The translations under genes and the position numbers were made by a program. Below are positions 16,195 through 26,412 of a stretch of 64,000 nucleotides of DNA, piece after piece (the stretch's first letter is position 1; each line of letters begins with the position of its first letter). Source of the DNA: an uncultured bacterium (lineage in GTDB: Bacteria; Desulfobacterota_D; UBA1144; Nemesobacterales; UBA2774); NCBI GenBank assembly GCA_963705505.1, contig CAVPJU010000006.1:448001-512000 (forward strand), in the 5' to 3' direction. The notes under the pieces are model-generated. The model was given only the letters and a program-made list of their open reading frames with translations, was not told where the DNA came from and searched no databases.

Positions 16195-17074
16195 TTAGAT
16201 CGACGAAAAGAATTTTAAGAGCTCGTCGGATACGTCTTCCGGTTTTTCCTCGGGAAGGAAATGGCCGCAGTCGAGCGCACGTCCTTGGACGTTCACAGCT
16301 TTTTCTTTCCACGTATCGATTACATCGTAAGTCCTGTGTATGAACCCCTTGCCTCCCCACAGCACTAAAAGCGGGCAAGCGATCTTTTTATCGAAGTCTT
16401 CCTCATCGTGTACGAGGTCTATTGTCGCCGCCGCCCTGTAATCCTCGCAGCTCGCGTGAATAGCGGCGGGGTCGCTGAAGCACCTCACGTATTCACTCAC
16501 GGCATTTTCATCGAACCGGGCGCCGGGCGCGCTCCAGCGTCTGAGCTTTTCTTTGAGATAATATTCCGGATCGCACCCGATCATTTTTTCAGGGAGGTTG
16601 TCGGGCTGGATTAAGAAGAACCAGTGGTAGTAGCCTGTCGCGAACGCCTTGTCCGCGCCCTTGAACATCGTATGCGTGGGAGCGATGTCCATGACGCAAG
16701 CGGCTTCTATGCGGTCCGGATAGTCAAGAGCCATCCTGTGCGTTACCCTTCCTCCCCTGTCGTGCCCTGCCGCGAAGAAGCTCTTATATCCGAGGGATTC
16801 CATTACCTCGACGCAGTCCCTTGGCCATAGCGCGCTTGGAATACGTGTGGTGGTCGGGAGAGGATTCGGGCTTCGAGCTGTCCCCGTAGCCTCTTAAGTC
16901 CATGCATACGACGTGGAAGTTTTCCGCGAGCCCGGGCGCGGTCCTGTGCCACATCACGTGCGTCTGAGGGTATCCGTGGAGCAGCAGGAGGGGCCTGCCC
17001 TTTCCCCCGTGGACGAGATTGATTACTGCGCCCGAGGTTTCGATTTTAGTCTTTTGGAATTTGTCGTCGAACAT
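16195..17074 (-). pseudogene. Fluoroacetate/haloacetate dehalogenase-like alpha/beta hydrolase with a one-base frameshift
   Basis: [10 protein letters not shown] and DLRGYGDS in 16784-17074; GHDRGGRV, YYHWFF, CEDYRA, CGHFLPEE in 16195-16803; removing one base of the run at 16818-16820 joins them ([14 protein letters not shown]). Confidence 0.85.
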
Positions 17075-17126
17075 GACGGTCGATCACCGACTGGGAAATT
17101 GCAATTACCTCTATTCAATTTTGACG

Positions 17127-18008
17127 CTATATATTGTTTCTGTCGAGCGACCTGTACTGTATCGCTTCGGATATGTGGTGAGCGAGGACGGTTTCGGAGC
17201 CTTCGAGGTCGGCGATAGTGCGGGAGACTTTCAATATTCTGTCATAGGCCCTTGCGCTCAAGCCGAGTTTATCAATCGCGGTCTCGAGCAGCTTTATCCC
17301 TTTCTCATCCGGTCTCGATGCTTTCCTGACCATTGACGGAGACATCTGGGAATTCGAGTGAATTTTGCTCCTCTTGAACCTCGCCTTCTGTATCTCCCTC
17401 GCGCGGTTGACGCGGCTCTTGATCGGGGACGAGCTTTCCCCTCCCGCTTCGTCGGCGAGCTCCTTATACCTCACGGGCGGGACTTCTATGTGTATATCTA
17501 TCCTGTCGAGGAGCGGTCCGGAGACCTTCGCCCTGTATTTCTGTATCTGTATGGGCGAGCAGGTGCACTCTTTTTGCAGATCGCCGTGATACCCGCATGG
17601 GCATGGGTTCATCGCCGCGACCAGCATGAAGTTGGCGGGGTATGTGATCGAAGTGGACGCCCTCGATATCGTCACCATGCCGTCCTCGAGAGGCTGGCGC
17701 ATTACTTCGAGGACATTCTTCCTGAATTCCGGGAGCTCGTCGAGAAAAAGGACGCCGTTATGCGCGAGGCTCACCTCGCCCGGCTTAGGGATCGCGCCCC
17801 CGCCTATGAGCCCGGCGTCGCTTATCGTGTGGTGAGGGGAGCGGAAGGGCCTCGTCGCGTATAGCGATGAATGGTTGGGGAGAAGGCCCGACACGGAGTA
17901 TATCTTCGTCGTCTCCAGCGCTTCCTCGAAGCTCATATCGGGGAGTATGGTGGGGAGTCTCCGGGCGAGCATCGTTTTCCCCGTGCCGGGGGAGCCAATC
18001 ATGAGCAC
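17127..18008 (-). pseudogene. comM: ComM/YifB Mg-chelatase-like ATPase, C-terminal fragment
   Basis: Begins [83 protein letters not shown]. Confidence 0.95.
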
Positions 18009-18052
18009 ACATGATCTCTTAAACTCCAGATAATCAAGAAATGGTTCATCTG

Positions 18053-20008
18053 TCAGATTGGGAGACCGTTCTCGTCCAGCCCAGCGAGAGCTCTAGTGGC
18101 TTCTAGGTATAGCTGTAAACGGCGGGAGTTTTCCGCTACCGAAAAATGCTTTTTTAGATTGATGCGTTCACTCAAAGAAGGAAGCGCGAATAATCGGGTT
18201 TGGAGCGAGTACTCGAGTGCTGACTCAATAGCAGGAAACAACCCGTTATCACTGATTAATTGAATGACTGTTCGCGCCGTATTGGCAGCTTCCACAGCTT
18301 TGGCCGGAGGTGATGCGTTCGATGGAAACCAACTAGGTACACCGCCTGCATTTTTCCATCGGTTTTGAATACCGACGGTGCGCCAAATCAGCTCTCCGGT
18401 AGGGAAGCGCGTATCTGCAATATGCGGAGGGTTGTAGTAAACCGCCGGTTGTTTCCAAAAGTCGAGTGCAGATTGTATCGTGGTTGTGAGTGAATCCGCG
18501 TGAGCTTGTGTCCAGCCGGCCGTGTTCAACAGGGATGGAAGCCAACTGGAAGCAGGTACGGCGTTCTTCCATTCCTTTTTTGACTCCTTCGTACTGTCGG
18601 ACTCCCATTGGGTGCTGAGCGAACGCATGTCCTTTAACAGCCGGATCAGGATGCCCATGAATAGAACGTCGCCGAGGTGGTAGCGAAGATAGGCCGTGTA
18701 GGGGCCGAATCTCGGCATCTGCACGGCGCGTGACCTGTCACGCCAGGCGAGAAGTGTGGCGGGGTTGGTTCGAGACTGATACCACCGGGCTGCAACGGTT
18801 AAGGTTATGAATGTGGAGTTTCCGTAATCATCGCCCAGTAAAGCCAGCTTGCGCGCGGTTGCTGAGTCAGGTATCCCACGAGGTTTATGCATTTGCAACA
18901 GCTGGTTTATCTGTGTGTAGGCAGCCTCAAGACTCGCCGAAACGGCCGGTAGGTCCGCCTGAGTTTCGATTGAACTCATCCATAGGGTTTCTACTAGCCG
19001 GTCGAAGGAGGGTTTGTATGAGGTCGAAAGCCTATTACGACGAGTTAGGTCCACGACTGGTGATATGTTGGAAGCGGCGTGAGTTTCTGCCAAAGCACGT
19101 AGCTCGTCTCCCAAAGGAAGAGGCCACGACGTAATCGCATCCAATCCACCCAGCCAATTCAAATTCTCCTCCGTCAAAGTGAGCCGGTAACTTTCGTCTT
19201 TGTGATCCATGGCGACGTCTGCTTGCCTGATCATGATCCACCCTGGCCTGCTGAGAGCATCGTTGGTCAGCGTAGTGTCGGTTGTGCGAAATACATTGGG
19301 CTCACGGCATGTGCCTTCCATCGTAAGAGTCAGAGGCCCATTAGGGAAACTACGCTCAGGAGGTGTGCAGCAGAAATTGCCTTCCAGTCGGTACAGAGCC
19401 ATCATTTCAGTAAAGGGGATCGATCGGTTACCTGAGGCCACGAGTGGCGAAACTAGAACACTCATACGGGATGTATAATCGAACCGCAGCAGTAGTTCGT
19501 GGACTTGACGTGCGGCCTGCACACCTAACGCTTGCAGCTCACGTGACAGTGAGCCGGTCTGTCCAAGGAGTGTTTGCCGCATTATAGAGAGAAGCTCCGT
19601 ACCACTAAAAGAGGATAACTGCGCAACGAATGCAGCGATCTCGTCAAGCGCCACCATGCAACGATAGTCGTGCAAAAAGACATCATCCAAGATTTCGGAC
19701 TGGTGGAGTGCAATCCGCGAATCGATTGTGGCGAGGAGTGAATTATTCGATGCCGCAAGTGCAAAAGCGATGCCGGGAGGCGGTGCTGATTCTAGTCGGG
19801 ACAGATCGGAGATCCATGCTGAAAGCACTCCGGTCCAATAGCTTCGAGCTGCCTGCAGTCTGGAGGGATTGTCAACGATTTTCAGCGCTTCGTTGGGGTT
19901 CATGGTCGGTCCACCATCCCAAAGGGTACCGATACCAGCCATTAAACGATATCCGAGCTCTATGATTAGCTCGGCAAAACTGAGATCTAATTTGTGCTGG
20001 TCAGGCAT
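18053..20008 (-). CDS. Hypothetical protein (~651 aa), island cargo gene 2
   Basis: Long ORF; ATG at 20008 has AGGTG upstream and overlaps the stop of the upstream gene by 8 nt (ORF track starts at 20017). Confidence 0.85.
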
Positions 20009-23000
20009 GTTTAACACCTGCCCTTTGCAATACTTTGGACTGCGGTTTTATCTTTTGGGACCTCACTTTGCTCACCAACCGCTCTCTCGATTCTTTCCGA
20101 CGTATCTTGTGTTCGAACAGATGCTGCCCTGAGGGCTTTCGCGGTGACTTTCGCTTCTGAGGTTTACCGGGCATTAGTACAATCACTCTCGTCGGAGGTT
20201 TCGGAGCCGCAGATGCGGGGACAGCGACGAAAGTCGCGGTCTGTTCGATGCGGCTATCGCTCTCTGCGATCACAATCAGTATTGTATGGAGACCTTCGTA
20301 TAAAGATCCCAGTTTCAGCACGGTTCGCAATCGTAATGTTATGTCAGATTGCTGCTTGAGCTTGGGCATCCGACCTGCCGGGATTTTCGAATCGAGGGCC
20401 CACGTAGCGGCGGTCTTCTTCTTTTGCGACCTGTTCTTGCTCATCCGGATCGCTTGGTCGAAGTGTTGACCCCACACGCCTATATTGTCTCTCAGATTGA
20501 CGATTGGAAGTCGCAGGCCATCGAGTGCGGTTTCAACTTCAAAACGGTCGAGCTCTAGCTCGACGCCGTCGAGCCAAACGAAGACTCGCTGTTGTTCGTT
20601 CTCGCCAAGCCCAAGGAAGGACTGAGGTACACCTTCCAGTTCGATCTGGACGGTGACGTCGCGATCATAAGCGCTGGCATGCTTCGGTTCAACGATGTTA
20701 ATCGATCTCGGGCCAGGTAGCGTTTCAGCTAATTGAGTATTTACGTGCGTCTGTTCCTGCTTCACATCGCTCTGCGTGTGTTCTGCCTCTGCCAGCTCTT
20801 GCTCAAGACCGAATGCATGGGCGAGCGCCTCGGCTAAGTCGTTCGCGGCGCTCTCAAACAGTTGCAGCCCACTAATCAAGCTTCGCAGGGTCGGCTCAAT
20901 CCAGCTGAGGTTCAAGTGAACGGAACCAAGATTGATGTCCACTTCAAACCTTCGCGTGCGCAAGTGCGCTCCCGACCAGTCTATCTCCACAACCTGCATG
21001 TTCCAAGCGACCTCAAAGCCGATGGGAATTGTTGGAGAGTGTCCAAGGCGGTCCAGAACACGATCGACAAACCAATCCACTAAAATCCCCGAAATCTCGC
21101 TAGCCAGATTCGCTCCTGGCTCCACATCTCGGAAGCGATCCATTAGATCGTCCACCTCATTGCTGACAGCCTCGATCGCTTCCCAGATTGCGTCCGCAAA
21201 GGAATTGTCTAGAAGATCGTTGATGGTGTTTCGTAATTGATTTCGTGCAGACTGCTTAGCTGATCTGGGAAGAGACTTGTACACAATGTTGTCGGTCAAA
21301 ATCGGTTTGATGAATTTATACACTTCATCAACCAATGCGGAACGGATAGCGTTTCTGCCGGCGCCCGTGGAGAGCATCGAGATGAGCGAACGTAGCTCAG
21401 CGAAAGCAGCGGTAAATGCAGCACCGACCTGAGCGATTAATTGTGATATCTGCTGTGCGAGATCTGCAAGCAGTGCGAGGATATCCAGCGCTAGTTGATT
21501 CAGCTGATTCAACCATTGCTGAACCTGTTCCTGGATAGCTTTGATAACTTCCAACAGATCCTCGAGCAGCTTCTGACCAAGCCGCAAAAGCAGCTTGGTC
21601 ACGAAGAGTTGGAAGCGCTGCCCGGCTATGCCGGCTAACTCATGGGAGAGTGCATCCAGAGTAAGGGGGTCAGGTACAAAGGTGTTATCAGCCAGTTGCT
21701 GAACGAAAGAGCCCTGGTTATCCAGAGGCAATGGCTCTAAGAGCTGGAACATAGCTTCGCGGATGTGTACGCGGGTTTCCGGTGGCAGTGGCCCGAAAAC
21801 TTCCCCCCCAATCCGAAGAACTTCTTGGCATAATTCTTCAATGTCCTCCGCGTTCGAGTTGCCTACCAGTGGCGTCAAGGTATCAACTAGTCCGACTTCA
21901 TCAACATGATCGGCGAGATCGAACATCAGGTCTTGCATTTCTCTCTGTGCAGTAGTCATGAGAATGTCAGTCGTGACGGCGAGACTGCGCCCAAGCAGCA
22001 TGATTAACACACTCGACAGCGCTTCGGTAAAAACACTCTTGTCGATAGGATCGGTATCCCAGGTGAGGATACGGTCGAATACCAGATCCGTGGATAGCGA
22101 CATGGAAGGCATCAGCACTTCGTCAAAATACAGGCGGAGGTCGGGATTTTCGCTCGACACATTTTGCACAATGGGCTCTAGCTGCTGTCGGACACCATCT
22201 TCAAGGAAGCTTGAAAGTCCTCCGGCGAGCGAGCTCAGACTCGCTTGAACATCGGGTCTTCCCTGGGCGTTATTTTTGAATGGCCCAAGCTGTGTCAAGA
22301 GAATCTCAGCAACCTGGGATAGTCCTGCAGCTACTTTGTCCTGGAAAATTTCCAAAAAGACCTTTACGTCCGGCGCGAGAGCGATGGCAAGCTGGACGCC
22401 CTCAGTCAACAGATACTGGATGAGCTCGTTCAGTTGTAATGCACTGGTAGTATTGTTGCCGCGAATTTCACGACGAATGTCACTTCCCGGGTCGGACACC
22501 ACCGATCCAGTGAAACTTTGTTGAGCGCTTGCCGGATTAAGACCCACTAGTGAGAAGGAGGCCCGTGCTTGGGGCTGGTCGAGTCGATCTGAGCAAACGC
22601 GCATCAATTCCATAGCAGCCCACAGGATCGCCACAGGTTTTCGAGGCAGTGTCGCATTAGGACTAACCGCGTCGAGCGCGGCAACGGCGAGCGGTACGAG
22701 CTCGGACCAGTAGCTGAGGCTTGTGGTCGCGAAGGGGTCATCTGGACACTGCGTCATCTTCAAGCCGAGTGCGCTAATTGCAGAATTGGCTGTATCCCAA
22801 CTGTTGCCGCTGAGCGTGGCAAGCTCGGATTCGAGGGTTTGTTGCAAATTGAGGAGACCAGCGGTTGCGATGCGCTGCAACAGGTAGCGCTGGCTTTCTT
22901 CCAAGATGACTTGGCAGCAGCGAAGAGCCAAACGCTTGGCACCGTCGGATGTGACTGGTACAGGCTCAGTTCCATTACCAAGCAGGATTCCGATCTCGTA

Positions 23001-23759
23001 AGCGGTACGGAAGGCAATCTTTGCCGGGGCTGAGAAAGCTCTAACAATGGACGCTTCGTTGATGGCCGTGGGTGGTAGCTGGCCTATAATCTGCGAAACG
23101 ACTTCATCGACGACCACGTCCACTGAGCGGCTCACCAGGCGGTCGAAGTTCGTGATGCCAGCATTGACGAAAAATCGAAATCCCGCGCCTGCTTTGAGGC
23201 CAGCTCCCATCTCAAAGAGGAAATTGAAACCGGGCTTTTCGTTCTGTGTAGGACCTTGCAGAGCACGTCCTGTTACTACAAGGTTCACATAGGCCATGGC
23301 GGAAGCGGCCGCCTTCGCATATAGGCCTCCGCCGAATGTTACTTCATCGAGAAAAATCACGAAGAGTTTCAGCGGTAAACCTTTCACCTTTAGGTCGTTC
23401 TGAACCAGGCTTAGTAGATCTCCTGCGCTTAAGCCAAGCCTTAGAGAAACGCCAGCCGCGGCCTCAGCTGATAGCTTGAGACGCACAGCGAGGCCGATCT
23501 CATCGAATAGGTTAAGCGGCACCTGCACTTGGCCTGTGATACGCACTTCGGCCATGGCTTGGCCGGTCAGCTCGGCGGCGATATATTTTTGGAAATTTGC
23601 ATCAAGGTTAATATATGCGCCTAAGCCAAGGTCGAAGGCAATTCCGTGCCTGACCTCAGCCTTGAGTGTGGCAAGAACGTTCCCCTGTATCCCCGCACTT
23701 CCCCAAGGACTGGAAGCACCGGCGGCTGCAGTGACAATTGGCTGGTCCAAATTCGGCAT
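20001..23759 (-). CDS. Hypothetical protein (1252 aa), island cargo gene 1
   Basis: Uninterrupted 3.76 kb ORF; Gly/Ala-rich alternating beta-strand N-terminus, long helical/coiled-coil middle, beta-rich region near the C-terminus, basic tail. Confidence 0.9.
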   Translation of the reverse strand: MPNLDQPIVTAAAGASSPWGSAGIQGNVLATLKAEVRHGIAFDLGLGAYINLDANFQKYIAAELTGQAMAEVRITGQVQVPLNLFDEIGLAVRLKLSAEAAAGVSLRLGLSAGDLLSLVQNDLKVKGLPLKLFVIFLDEVTFGGGLYAKAAASAMAYVNLVVTGRALQGPTQNEKPGFNFLFEMGAGLKAGAGFRFFVNAGITNFDRLVSRSVDVVVDEVVSQIIGQLPPTAINEASIVRAFSAPAKIAFRTAYEIGILLGNGTEPVPVTSDGAKRLALRCCQVILEESQRYLLQRIATAGLLNLQQTLESELATLSGNSWDTANSAISALGLKMTQCPDDPFATTSLSYWSELVPLAVAALDAVSPNATLPRKPVAILWAAMELMRVCSDRLDQPQARASFSLVGLNPASAQQSFTGSVVSDPGSDIRREIRGNNTTSALQLNELIQYLLTEGVQLAIALAPDVKVFLEIFQDKVAAGLSQVAEILLTQLGPFKNNAQGRPDVQASLSSLAGGLSSFLEDGVRQQLEPIVQNVSSENPDLRLYFDEVLMPSMSLSTDLVFDRILTWDTDPIDKSVFTEALSSVLIMLLGRSLAVTTDILMTTAQREMQDLMFDLADHVDEVGLVDTLTPLVGNSNAEDIEELCQEVLRIGGEVFGPLPPETRVHIREAMFQLLEPLPLDNQGSFVQQLADNTFVPDPLTLDALSHELAGIAGQRFQLFVTKLLLRLGQKLLEDLLEVIKAIQEQVQQWLNQLNQLALDILALLADLAQQISQLIAQVGAAFTAAFAELRSLISMLSTGAGRNAIRSALVDEVYKFIKPILTDNIVYKSLPRSAKQSARNQLRNTINDLLDNSFADAIWEAIEAVSNEVDDLMDRFRDVEPGANLASEISGILVDWFVDRVLDRLGHSPTIPIGFEVAWNMQVVEIDWSGAHLRTRRFEVDINLGSVHLNLSWIEPTLRSLISGLQLFESAANDLAEALAHAFGLEQELAEAEHTQSDVKQEQTHVNTQLAETLPGPRSINIVEPKHASAYDRDVTVQIELEGVPQSFLGLGENEQQRVFVWLDGVELELDRFEVETALDGLRLPIVNLRDNIGVWGQHFDQAIRMSKNRSQKKKTAATWALDSKIPAGRMPKLKQQSDITLRLRTVLKLGSLYEGLHTILIVIAESDSRIEQTATFVAVPASAAPKPPTRVIVLMPGKPQKRKSPRKPSGQHLFEHKIRRKESRERLVSKVRSQKIKPQSKVLQRAGVKHA

Positions 23760-24109
23760 TAGGCAAGCATCCTTACAATAGAAGGCTAACTAATAATAAG
23801 AACGCAATTAATGCAAAATTACATTCGAAATGAAGGGTTTTACAATATAATTCGCTATTAATCCTGATACTACAACAATTATAATTTCTCGTCAACAAGG
23901 TATATAGAAACAGAATAGAGGCAAAGCAAAAACTATTAGATCAGTTTGTTGTGATCATGTTCAATAATTATATTAGCTTCCCGAATGACGATATTGAAGT
24001 AAGATTTCAGATAAAATCGTAATATAACTTTGTTCACAAAACAATTAAGTATCAACAAGAATGTTTCTTTATAGAACAGAAAAAGGGAAACACAATTGTG
24101 GATTTCTGG

Positions 24110-24781
24110 CTATAACGTAAGCACGTTGTGCACGTTGTGCCCGCCGCTCGCCGCGACTTCGAGAGCCCTCTTTACGTGCTCCTGCCCTTTCACCTCGTGG
24201 AAATCGACGTCGTAGGTCTTTGCCTTTGTGAATATCGATCCTATATCTATCCTCGTCGGAGGGATTTCCTTTTTGCCTGCGAGAAACTCGATTAATTCCT
24301 GGAGGGATTCTATCGCGAATACGTCAACACCCTCGACGACCGCGGCTTCTTCCGCGTTTTCTTTAGGGAGAAATATTCCCTTGAGCCCCGAGTCCCTCAC
24401 GCAAATAGAAGAGGGCAATGCGCCCTTAATCGGCTTTACCCTGCCGTCGAGTGAGAGCTCGCCGAGGATTACATACCTGCTCAGGAGCTCGTGGTCTATC
24501 AGTCCTATCGCGGAGAGGATTCCAAGCGAGATGGGGAGGTCGAAGGCCGAGCCCTCTTTCCTTATGTCGGCGGGGGCCAGGTTGACCGTGATCCTTCTGG
24601 AAGGGAATTCGTAGCCGCAGTTCTTTATAGCCGCCCTCACTCTCTCCTTGCTTTCCCTGACCGCGCCTTCGGGGAGGCCTACTGTGTTGAACTGCGGGAG
24701 CCCGAACGCGAGGTCCACCTCGACATCCACCAGGTAGGCGTCGACTCCGAGTACTGCGCTGCTCAGGACTTTTGACATCAT
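24110..24781 (-). pseudogene. comM: ComM/YifB, N-terminal fragment (Lon-like ChlI domain)
   Basis: VGLPEGAVRESKERVRAA, ITVNLAPADIRKEGSAFDLPI, GELSLDG, VKGQEHVKRALEVAASGGHNV, then junction-derived HNVLTL-stop. Confidence 0.95.
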
Positions 24782-24973
24782 GTTAGCGGGGCCTATTGCA
24801 ACCTTAAATGCCTTTTTTATATCGGGTTATGAAATAAAAATCAATCTAAGAACTAAAATAGTATTTTACCCTGACCTGCTCGAACATCTTTTGTCTTGAG
24901 GACAATCCTCCGGGTATGCAGGGATCCTAGTAAAAAACGTTCGGCAACGAGGGCATTAATCTCACTTTTACAA

Positions 24974-25030
24974 TTGACAACCCGGGCATTCTTATTAATA
25001 TTTATAGCAGTCTAAGTAAGTACTTACTTA
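24974..25030 (+). promoter_or_regulatory. Sigma-70 promoter and perfect 18-bp palindromic operator upstream of the RND operon
   Basis: TTGACA 24974-24979, N16, TAATAT 24996-25001; TAAGTAAGTACTTACTTA 25013-25030. Confidence 0.65.
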
Positions 25031-25218
25031 CACTTTCTTCAAAGCTTTTCACCGGACGGGCAGTAGAATGAAGAACCTGATATATGCTGGTAATTTATAA
25101 TTACGGCTGACAAATGATCAGACCCGCAGGCTTTCGGGTGCGGGTCTTGAGGTATTGTGAAAGTGGATGAAATTCGCTCCGGGCTTTTTCGAATAGTGAG
25201 GACGGGAGGAAAAATTTT

Positions 25219-26412
25219 ATGACTCGTCTATGGTCGCAATACCTTATCACGATTGCGGCATCTTTGATGCTTATCACGGCTTGTTCCGGGGATAGTAATA
25301 AGCAGGCTGAAAAAGCGGCACAGAAAGCTCAGGGAGCGGCTGTTCCCGTGAGGGTGGCCAGCGTAAAGCAAAAGGACGTGCCTGTTCAGCTTCACGCAGT
25401 GGGCAACGTCGAAGAGTATTCAAAGGTGGACGTAAAGCCCCAGGTGGACGGAGAGCTCGCGCGGATCTACTTCAACGAAGGTGATAACGTAAAGAAGGGC
25501 GAGCTGCTTTTTCTCCTGGACACACGCCCGTTCGAATACGCGCTCCGGGTATCCGAAGCCAACATGGCGAGGGATACTGCTCAGATGAAAAAGGCGAAAG
25601 AGGACGCCAGGCGGTACGAGGACCTGGTCAAGAGGGGGGTCGTCTCAGAGCAGCAGTATGAGCAGTACAGCGCGGATTATCAGGCCCTCGAAGCGACCGT
25701 CAAGGCCGACGAGGCCGCGGTCGAAAAAGCCGGGCTCGATCTCGAGTACTGCTCCATAAGCTCTCCGATTGACGGGCGCATAGGCGAGATACTGGTCCAT
25801 GTCGGAAACACCGTTGAGAAGAGGTCTACACTTCTTGCCGTTATTAATCAGACGAAGCCCGTATATGTAAATTTTTCACTGCCCGAGCAGTACTTATCCG
25901 ACGTCAGAAATTATTTGGCTTCCGAAGGTAGTCTCAAAGTATACGCCGACATTCCCAAAGGAAAATCCGGGCCTCCCGAAGGTTCCTTGAAAGAAGAGCC
26001 GGCATCGGAAACGACCGTGTCCGAGACAGTTACGGGGGAGCTCAGCTTTATTAATAACGAGGTGAACGAGTCTACGGGCACGATTATGCTGAAGGGGGTC
26101 TTTCAGAATGACGACGAGGCTCTCTGGCCGGGCAAATTCGTAAATGTGTCGCTTACACTCACTATGCAGCAGGATGCTATCCTGATACCGGCAAAGGCCG
26201 TTCAGACGAGCAGGGACGGGACATACGTTTTCGTGGTCACACCCGATTCCACGGTGGAGTCCCGGCCTGTTGTGGAAGGGGTCAAAGCCGGTCAGGACGT
26301 CGTGATACTTAAGGGGCTTAAGCCCGGAGAGCGTGTAGTTACGGAGGGACACCTTCGTCTCGCTCCCGGCGTAAAGGTGACTATAAAGGACGGCAACGAA
26401 AATGAGGTTTGA
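25219..26412 (+). CDS. RND efflux periplasmic adaptor (MdtA-like lipoprotein)
   Basis: Lipobox ITAC; VKPQVDGEL, SISSPIDGRIG, LWPGKFV, GLKPGERVVTEG. Confidence 0.92.
   Translation: MTRLWSQYLITIAASLMLITACSGDSNKQAEKAAQKAQGAAVPVRVASVKQKDVPVQLHAVGNVEEYSKVDVKPQVDGELARIYFNEGDNVKKGELLFLLDTRPFEYALRVSEANMARDTAQMKKAKEDARRYEDLVKRGVVSEQQYEQYSADYQALEATVKADEAAVEKAGLDLEYCSISSPIDGRIGEILVHVGNTVEKRSTLLAVINQTKPVYVNFSLPEQYLSDVRNYLASEGSLKVYADIPKGKSGPPEGSLKEEPASETTVSETVTGELSFINNEVNESTGTIMLKGVFQNDDEALWPGKFVNVSLTLTMQQDAILIPAKAVQTSRDGTYVFVVTPDSTVESRPVVEGVKAGQDVVILKGLKPGERVVTEGHLRLAPGVKVTIKDGNENEV

Follow-up and report, generated by a model that had tools for sequence, protein, structure and literature searches.

Interruption of comM just before its Walker A motif by a 6.1-kb, two-gene insert that probably descends from a large serine recombinase island

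The DNA analysed here is a stretch of 64,000 nucleotides from an uncultured bacterium of the GTDB order Nemesobacterales (assembly GCA_963705505.1, contig CAVPJU010000006.1, positions 448,001 to 512,000; hereafter the window), in which the comM/YifB gene, on the minus strand, is interrupted by an insert of about 6.1 kb. ComM has been described as the branch-migration helicase of natural transformation (PMC6158740). The gene is cut directly after the GGHNV codons, just before the Walker A motif, with zero residues lost. Its N-terminal piece lies in an open reading frame (ORF) of 223 amino acids (24110-24781, ending in ...ALEVAASGGHNVHNVLTL and a stop), in which the 217 native residues, ending in ...ALEVAASGGHNV, are followed by six foreign codons (HNVLTL) and the stop at 24110. 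The C-terminal piece is an ORF of 293 amino acids (17127-18008) with a GTG start, the native Met codon of this half being 18002-18000. Together the pieces cover the YifB/ComM model TIGR00368 with no gap at the break (241 bits for the N half), and the C half alone exceeds the cut-off of that model (362 bits). All the parts of a ComM/YifB protein are present across both halves, namely the ChlI/Lon-like N domain, the AAA+ Mg_chelatase domain and Mg_chelatase_C. Both halves are free of internal stops, the C half is 96-98% identical to its same-genus orthologues, and a search of the whole assembly found no second copy of comM. An earlier note on this DNA had described comM as split before Walker A by an insert of about 6.1 kb, with neither half carrying stops or frameshifts, and the ORFs, the TIGR00368 coverage and the intact comM genes of the same genus bear this out.

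In the sense orientation of comM, the left junction has the sequence GGGCACAACGTG-CACAACGTG-CT-TACGTTATAGCCAGAAATCCAC... and the right one ...GGAGTTTAAGAGATCATGTGTG-CT-CATGATTGG. The two CT dinucleotides (24121-24120 and 18005-18004) lie 6116 bp apart; together with a 9-bp tandem copy of CACAACGTG, the additional DNA amounts to 6125 bp, the length of the segment (18009-24133) whose removal had been proposed in the earlier note to restore the comM frame. The first copy of CACAACGTG, at 24131-24139, adjoins the second, and the duplication is absent from all 8 intact comM sequences compared. The GTG that precedes the CT of the right junction also matches intact comM, so that five nucleotides, GTGCT, are common to both junctions. 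No terminal inverted repeats were found between the insert ends, and the insert is single-copy in the genome.

Between these junctions lie an AT-rich leader and two overlapping ORFs of 1252 and 654 amino acids, ORF-A and ORF-B, in agreement with the earlier reading of only two large ORFs and an AT-rich spacer of about 350 bp (here 23760-24110, 36-40% GC). ORF-B overlaps the end of ORF-A by 17 nt, which suggests that the two form an operon. The leader carries a sigma-70-like site (TTGACG-17-TAGTAT, 23895-23867), by consensus match only; Rfam gave no match in 16500-25500 (E up to 1), and the non-coding C-side end of the insert holds no terminator-like site.

The empty site is preserved in close relatives. 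In two genomes of the same genus, G004 and G005, the counterparts of window positions 17140-18008 and 24127-24862 adjoin each other within a single unbroken comM, and synteny extends to the efflux-pump gene upstream. The protein sequence spanning the site is GGHN(V/L)LMIGSPG in eight intact relatives, and of the 40 relatives covered by a TIGR00368 search, 22 gave one uninterrupted full-length match. In G010, a genome of the same family and another genus, comM is present in two pieces (model positions 1-216 and 211-499) separated by a 25.5-kb island, which sits at exactly the same CT dinucleotide as the window insert. The G010 junctions read ...CATAACCTG-CT-TACGATGTGGTCTTAAAACCAC... and ...GGTATTAAGAACACATCATA-CT-CATGATAGG. 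A CT before CATGAT, consistent with a 2-nt crossover core, was found at both window junctions, at both G010 junctions and in the 8 intact comM genes. Adjoining the comM C-half, the G010 island encodes a large serine recombinase (LSR) of 541 amino acids with Resolvase, Recombinase and Zn_ribbon_recom domains. Homologues of Mg-chelatase/ComM are reported as the targets of 12.4% of predicted site-specific LSRs, and as the commonest LSR target, in Durrant et al. 2022 (PMC10083194), so that comM had correctly been named as a recurrent target of such enzymes.

Attachment arms of 30 nt, anchored at CT, were compared against 20,000 shuffles. The P arm of G010 matches the reverse complement of its P' arm at 23/30 positions, with 0 of 20,000 shuffles as good, and the G010 arms thus behave as those of an attP site should. 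The N-side (P') arm of the window insert matches G010 P' at 18/30 positions, in register (p 1e-4), and G010 P at 14/30 (p 0.019). For the C-side (P) arm, 18035-18006, the figures were 10/30 against the reverse complement of its own P' (p 0.28), 8/30 against G010 P (p 0.64) and 10/30 against the end of an insertion at the same position in another genome, G007 (p 0.34); joining the insert ends yielded no attP with inverted-repeat arms. By this comparison, the N-side half-site is recognisable and the C-side one is not: the putative attL carries a homologous half-site together with the 9-bp duplication, and the arm of the putative attR is unrecognisable. The half-site pattern is unique in the genome at 0 mismatches, and at 2 mismatches it has 5 matches, versus 4 for the reversed control. 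A further genome, G013, was rejected as a comparator for the arms, the Walker A region of its C-half being diverged and its insertion position seemingly a different one.

Table 1. Positions of the comM halves, the junctions and the insert features in the window
Feature	Position	Strand	Basis or remark
comM/YifB N-terminal half, native codons 1-217, ends ...GGHNV	24131..24781	-	Pfam ChlI 7.3e-47; TIGR00368 1-214
9-bp tandem duplication CACAACGTG, second copy, in the comM-derived (B) arm of the left junction (attL)	24122..24130	-	direct reading
Left junction, attL-like CT, common to the intact site and the G010 island junction	24120..24121	-	
Candidate LSR attP-type half-site (P' arm), N-side insert end, TACGTTATAGCCAGAAATCCAC...	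24090..24119	-	likeness to G010 arms
AT-rich non-coding leader, 36-40% GC	23760..24089	-	upstream of ORF-A
ORF-A, 1252 aa	20001..23759	-	no family above cut-off
ORF-B, 654 aa (651 aa from ATG 20008), predicted all-alpha	18053..20017	-	no family
C-side insert end, non-coding, 47 nt between ORF-B and the right junction	18006..18052	-	
Right junction, attR-like CT	18004..18005	-	
comM/YifB C-terminal half, Walker A onward	17127..18003	-	Pfam Mg_chelatase 4.6e-86 and Mg_chelatase_C; TIGR00368 214-499, 396 bits

Neither ORF-A nor ORF-B matched a recombinase or transposase family in Pfam, NCBIfam or PADLOC, and a tblastn search of the insert with the G010 LSR returned a best E of 0.69, with no LSR remnant. 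The insert thus encodes no recombinase, as had been claimed from its ORFs, and no LSR of its own with the Resolvase, Recombinase and zinc-ribbon domains of an LSR element. The earlier note had also proposed a search for a cognate serine recombinase elsewhere in the genome. The assembly (2.88 Mb in 10 contigs, 93.6% complete, probably a metagenome bin) gave 0 matches to the G010 LSR, to PF00239 and to PF07508, under conditions in which PF00239 was detected in 13 and PF07508 in 6 of 14 known genomes. Eight tyrosine-recombinase matches in the genome, the nearest about 340 kb off on the contig, were judged irrelevant to a 2-nt serine-type crossover.

Parts of the stretch occur in six public runs, and the contigs of four of them (X1-X3, X6) were examined. 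Three runs of one study contain short pieces identical to ORF-A and ORF-B, and a run of another study contains pieces about 90-93% identical across 19551-23420. None of the contigs covers either junction, which leaves them uninformative either way. One 193-nt contig of X1 skips from 18004 to 24130; one of its sides has only 25 nt, and the 167 nt of the other include 6 mismatches. With these mismatches, it represents the empty site of a related strain (about 96% identity) and not an excision event in the strain of the window. No sign of excision was found in the public contigs examined, which does not prove its absence. The ratios of nonsynonymous to synonymous substitution (dN/dS) of the comM halves against G004, G005 and G020 are 0.03-0.08, and those of intact-to-intact pairs 0.03-0.10, with dS of 0.5-1.5. 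As the two ranges are the same, either the split is so young that no signal has built up or the halves retain a use, and the statistic does not separate these two cases.

Excision-controlled gene switches are exemplified by skin/sigK and by the comK prophages. The earlier note had raised such a switch for natural transformation at this locus, on account of the intact halves. The proposal found no support: neither a cognate recombinase nor a restored form of the window's comM was detected in the assembly and the public contigs, the skipping contig is from a related strain, and intact halves are equally explained by a recent insertion.

We consider it probable, at roughly 0.6, that the insert is the remnant of an island delivered by an LSR to the comM attB site, which has lost its integrase and one recognisable arm. 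This was one of the two origins suggested in the earlier note, and it gains support from the shared CT site of G010, from the N-side half-site and from the lack of any LSR remnant in the insert. An LSR would have integrated the island into attB just before the Walker A codons, and the LSR gene and the recognisable second half-site would have been lost after integration. The loss may have occurred by internal rearrangement. Alternatively, two different islands at this site, of which one carried its LSR on the right (as in G010) and the other on the left, may have undergone homologous recombination and left a mosaic whose left and right ends stem from different islands. A simple deletion is unlikely because the right junction is exact to the CT, and a random deletion would rarely stop within 2 nt of the crossover. 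The 9-bp slip in the left junction would be a further scar, and this duplication in attL and the unrecognisable C-side arm look like marks of decay. Such an island would be unable to excise by itself, and comM would stay split unless a foreign LSR recognised the present junctions. The halves would look intact because the event is recent relative to the divergence of the species, and within the species the island could still spread via ordinary homologous recombination through the comM flanks. Its two cargo genes would be expressed as one operon from a promoter in the AT-rich leader.

Several points weigh against this explanation. The right junction is exact to the CT despite the unrecognisable arm adjoining it, and the mosaic route is one that we only infer. 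The arm comparison depends on one comparator element, G010, and on 30-nt shuffles. In a probable bin that is 93.6% complete, a plasmid- or phage-borne LSR outside the bin would escape detection. No genomic context was recovered for the closest relatives of ORF-A and ORF-B, so that this cargo can only be presumed to have travelled with an LSR. Finally, fully open halves with dN/dS of 0.03-0.08 equally fit continued use of comM, either through excision or as a split protein.

The insert could instead be a non-autonomous and still mobile element, like a cis-mobilizable element (CIME) or a pseudo-SCC (staphylococcal cassette chromosome), which keeps usable attL and attR sites, is excised, moved or exchanged in trans by the LSR of another comM island, a phage or a plasmid, and could restore comM on leaving it, as the switch proposal supposes. 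We regard this as unlikely. Both junctions are precise at CT, the halves are intact under purifying-selection-like statistics, and several different elements occupy the same position (G010, and contig C8 of G007). Moreover, comM is split, as judged by length, in 21 of the 120 clusters of relatives listed, which implies that donor LSRs circulate, and the assembly in which none was found is incomplete. A weak additional point is that pieces identical to the island occur in the same run as the empty-site allele, which is from a strain about 96% identical, although the contig of this allele has only 193 nt and its short side 25 nt. On the other side, no serine recombinase was found in the assembly, the arms are not inverted copies of each other (10/30, versus 23/30 in the autonomous G010 island), the 9-bp duplication alters the spacing of attL, the half-site pattern occurs only once in the genome, and the skipping contig, with its 6 differences in 167 positions, is not an excision product of the window's strain. 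The second origin suggested in the earlier note, a non-autonomous element mobilised from elsewhere, is accordingly weakened by the missing LSR, the arms and the duplication; what survives of it is that unbinned plasmids or phages could carry the enzyme. A more elaborate version, which we hold to be improbable, would make the insert a minimal, integrase-less hitchhiker cassette for the comM docking site, with hybrid non-palindromic arms, moved or exchanged in trans by LSRs from comM islands that circulate alongside it. In this little-studied phylum a single attB would then serve autonomous as well as parasitic elements, comM could be reversibly restored, and the two rare giant proteins would form a new conflict or defence module that repays the cost of keeping the cassette.

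An arrival without any LSR is very unlikely in our estimation. The insert would then be a transposon with a 5-bp target duplication (GTGCT), as in the Tn7-type AbaR islands, or would owe its movement to an unrecognised mobility function of ORF-A or ORF-B. The GTGCT common to both junctions and the 9-bp duplication would suit such an origin, as would the fact that ORF-A and ORF-B match no family of known function. Against this, the ends lack terminal inverted repeats, and neither a transposase nor a Tns family was found. Both 9-bp copies lie side by side at one junction instead of bracketing the insert, and the left end shows in-register homology, starting at the CT, to an LSR half-site. Nor does ORF-A behave as a mobility gene, no mobility domain having been found among 37 neighbouring ORFs at six distant ORF-A loci. 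That the 6.1-kb segment was misplaced inside comM by the assembler is scarcely credible. In its favour, neither junction is spanned by any public contig examined, and the genome is a probable metagenome bin. Against it, the segment sits exactly at the crossover dinucleotide of an LSR island in another genome and begins with a homologous half-site, neither of which a chimeric join would produce. The joins also lack repeats that could mislead an assembler, and the longest contig of the cluster that holds ORF-B has 821,072 bp.

Several known systems resemble the insert in part. LSR islands and prophages in comM/YifB, as described in PMC10083194 and as seen in G010, share with it the target gene, the position before Walker A and the clean split without loss of codons, and the G010 island also shares the CT and a homologous half-site at one end. 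Unlike them, the window insert has no LSR in the element or the assembly, an unrecognisable second arm and a 9-bp duplication, and against the 25.5 kb of the G010 island it has only 6.1 kb with two cargo genes. Pseudo-SCCmec elements lack ccr and lie exactly at attB after the loss of their serine recombinases, which was interpreted as loss of mobility after integration (PMC6450365). Such elements, SCC in rlmH/orfX without ccr, are on the reading favoured here like the insert in that an LSR delivered them to attB, the recombinase is gone and no other serine recombinase was found in the genome; they differ in host phylum, target gene and recombinase clade, and they usually keep direct repeats at both ends, whereas the insert has a recognisable end on one side only. 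CIMEs are defined, in PMC5704250, as decayed integrative conjugative or mobilizable elements that have lost their integration and transfer genes and kept attL and attR. The insert is likewise an integrase-less island between site-specific junctions, such as the decay of an autonomous element would leave, but CIMEs have by definition usable att sites and derive from tyrosine-integrase elements of streptococci, and the usability of the window sites is doubtful. In common with both classes, the insert lacks integration genes and is positioned precisely at an attachment site that a known integrase family uses.

Islands in comM can manipulate transformation, as reported for AbaR in Acinetobacter baumannii (PMC11441513). 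Like AbaR, the window insert interrupts comM and may thereby lower natural transformation and aid its own retention. AbaR islands are, however, Tn7-like transposons with Tns genes and inverted ends, neither of which the insert has; of the features of that group, Tns genes, inverted terminal repeats and a 5-bp target duplication, only the last could be mimicked here, by the shared GTGCT.

Both comM-targeting LSR islands and recombinase-less descendants of LSR elements are already known, and the window insert adds another case. It would exemplify an LSR island decaying in place, with a clean cut in the target, one arm kept and the recombinase gone. It is also a caution for pipelines that find islands by their integrases (PMC10083194 used PF07508), to which remnants of this kind are invisible. 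If the insert were still mobilised in trans, the idea of CIMEs and pseudo-SCC would extend to LSRs that target comM. The interruption of comM may affect natural transformation in these bacteria.

The comM gene of this Dadabacteria-like group appears, from the genomes compared, to be a hot spot and a busy docking site, with at least two insertion positions and several unrelated elements: the G010 island, the insertion in G007, a second site in three genomes, and clusters of C-halves. Among the 120 best comM relatives listed, 16 are C-halves of 291-294 amino acids and 5 are of 268-269 amino acids, all without the N-terminal ChlI domain; by the source names of close matches, the host belongs to 'Candidatus Dadabacteria'. 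In G024, G014 and G003, which are of the family too, the comM pieces overlap at the second site (model positions 227-240) and lie 15-32 kb apart, with an LSR of 563-569 amino acids beside the C-half. G007 has an intact comM and a separate C-half on a 5.9-kb contig; the insertion end in its contig C8 is unrelated and stands at the insertion position of the window. In G100, contig C85 terminates exactly at the site and gives no junction. Homologues of the G010 LSR occur in 5 of 120 genomes of the phylum, and none of the 12 other loci is beside comM.

Some details of these islands were noted in passing. In G010 (contig C9, locus L021, 12811-12817), the LSR ORF crosses the right junction and stops at the TGA within the comM sequence ATGA, its stop codon overlapping the native Met codon of the C-half, and in a circular form the LSR frame would extend into the other arm. 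The second LSR position (G024:C4, G014:C1 and G003:C5; loci L024, L027 and L025) lies about 13-26 codons downstream of the first, and the N and C pieces there overlap by about 13 residues, which implies that those elements carry a short mimic of the target. In G003:C5, from the same genus as the window, the C-half with its 569-aa LSR (L025, 1045-3541) and the N-half (model positions 1-240; L026, 14081-14950) are about 30 kb apart on opposite strands, and the island, or part of it, seems inverted relative to a simple insertion. The comM C-half of G007:C8 (L022) abuts an insertion with fragments of an integrase core (rve). In G013:C19 (L023, about 1750-1900), a new ATG and a diverged copy of the Walker A region (MIQSHLITGCQGTGKAML...) open the C-half and look like element-borne replacement sequence; no LSR is beside this half, its neighbours being FAD-binding, GNAT and selenium-binding-protein genes. 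G052, from the same order, has nine matches of the G010 type of LSR (L036, L040-L047; 51-65% identical), several with internal stops or on small contigs and none beside comM.

As for the cargo, no family in Pfam, NCBIfam, PADLOC or PHROGs explains ORF-A or ORF-B, with only sub-threshold matches of coiled-coil type for ORF-A and none for ORF-B. ORF-A consists of a conserved Ala/Gly-rich N-terminal region, a helical bundle at about 200-395, a coiled-coil-like segment at about 730-830 and a basic tail, and a Kyte-Doolittle scan of it showed no strong hydrophobic segment (maximum 1.62). Profile searches against PDB sequences retrieved nothing for ORF-B and, for ORF-A, only coiled-coil noise, the best match (E 3.9e-4) being a designed helical bundle; the ESM Atlas had no usable match for either. 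An AlphaFold2 model of ORF-A residues 1-430 had a mean predicted local distance difference test score (pLDDT) of 59 and was confident only at 200-395, as a helical bundle; that of ORF-B, with a mean pLDDT of 38, was unusable. Foldseek against PDB gave no match at E<=0.001, and the VIA wide fold search retrieved only generic helical bundles (best Z 7.9).

Relatives of ORF-A number 19, including itself; they are 29-65% identical and come from several phyla, with labels that include Vineibacter terrae, Nitrospirae and Bryobacteraceae. For ORF-B, 5 relatives came from a word-indexed search, and a full HMMER search found 60 representatives at E<=0.001 among 1.84 billion. For both proteins the closest relatives carry the label of the alphaproteobacterium Vineibacter terrae (65% identity for ORF-A, 55% for ORF-B). 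Within the 41 genomes searched, ORF-A is present only in the window's own and in none of the 40 relatives. The pair thus represents two rare, unannotated protein families shared with distant phyla, and from this distribution it appears to be foreign. A scan of genome contigs yielded only six loci, all with distant relatives of ORF-A and resembling ordinary chromosomal contexts. ORF-B was not found at these loci by tblastn, a profile built from 34 members of its family matched 0 of their 422 ORFs (positive control 1.8e-178), and it was absent from all five whole genomes searched. As the 37 neighbouring ORFs hold no recombinase or transposase domain, ORF-A would be cargo and not mobility machinery. 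Two metagenome scans (with the ORF-B alignment and with protein P0005) and two scans of viral contigs returned no context for the close relatives, and the Vineibacter relative did not turn up in a sample of 401 alphaproteobacterial genomes drawn to capture it. One might guess, weakly, at a conflict or defence-type module, because the proteins are large, rare, patchy across phyla and carried on a mobile island.

Downstream of comM, the alpha/beta-hydrolase gene of the window (16195-17074, minus strand) is present as two overlapping frames. The ORF at 16784-17074 matches Abhydrolase_1 positions 2-57 and that at 16195-16803 matches positions 63-245, as in a frameshifted pseudogene or after a sequencing error near 16784-16803. 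Only 66 bp (17074-17140) separate this gene from comM in the window, whereas in G007:C8, of the same genus, a gene for a 293-aa ion channel (Ion_trans_2) lies between the two.

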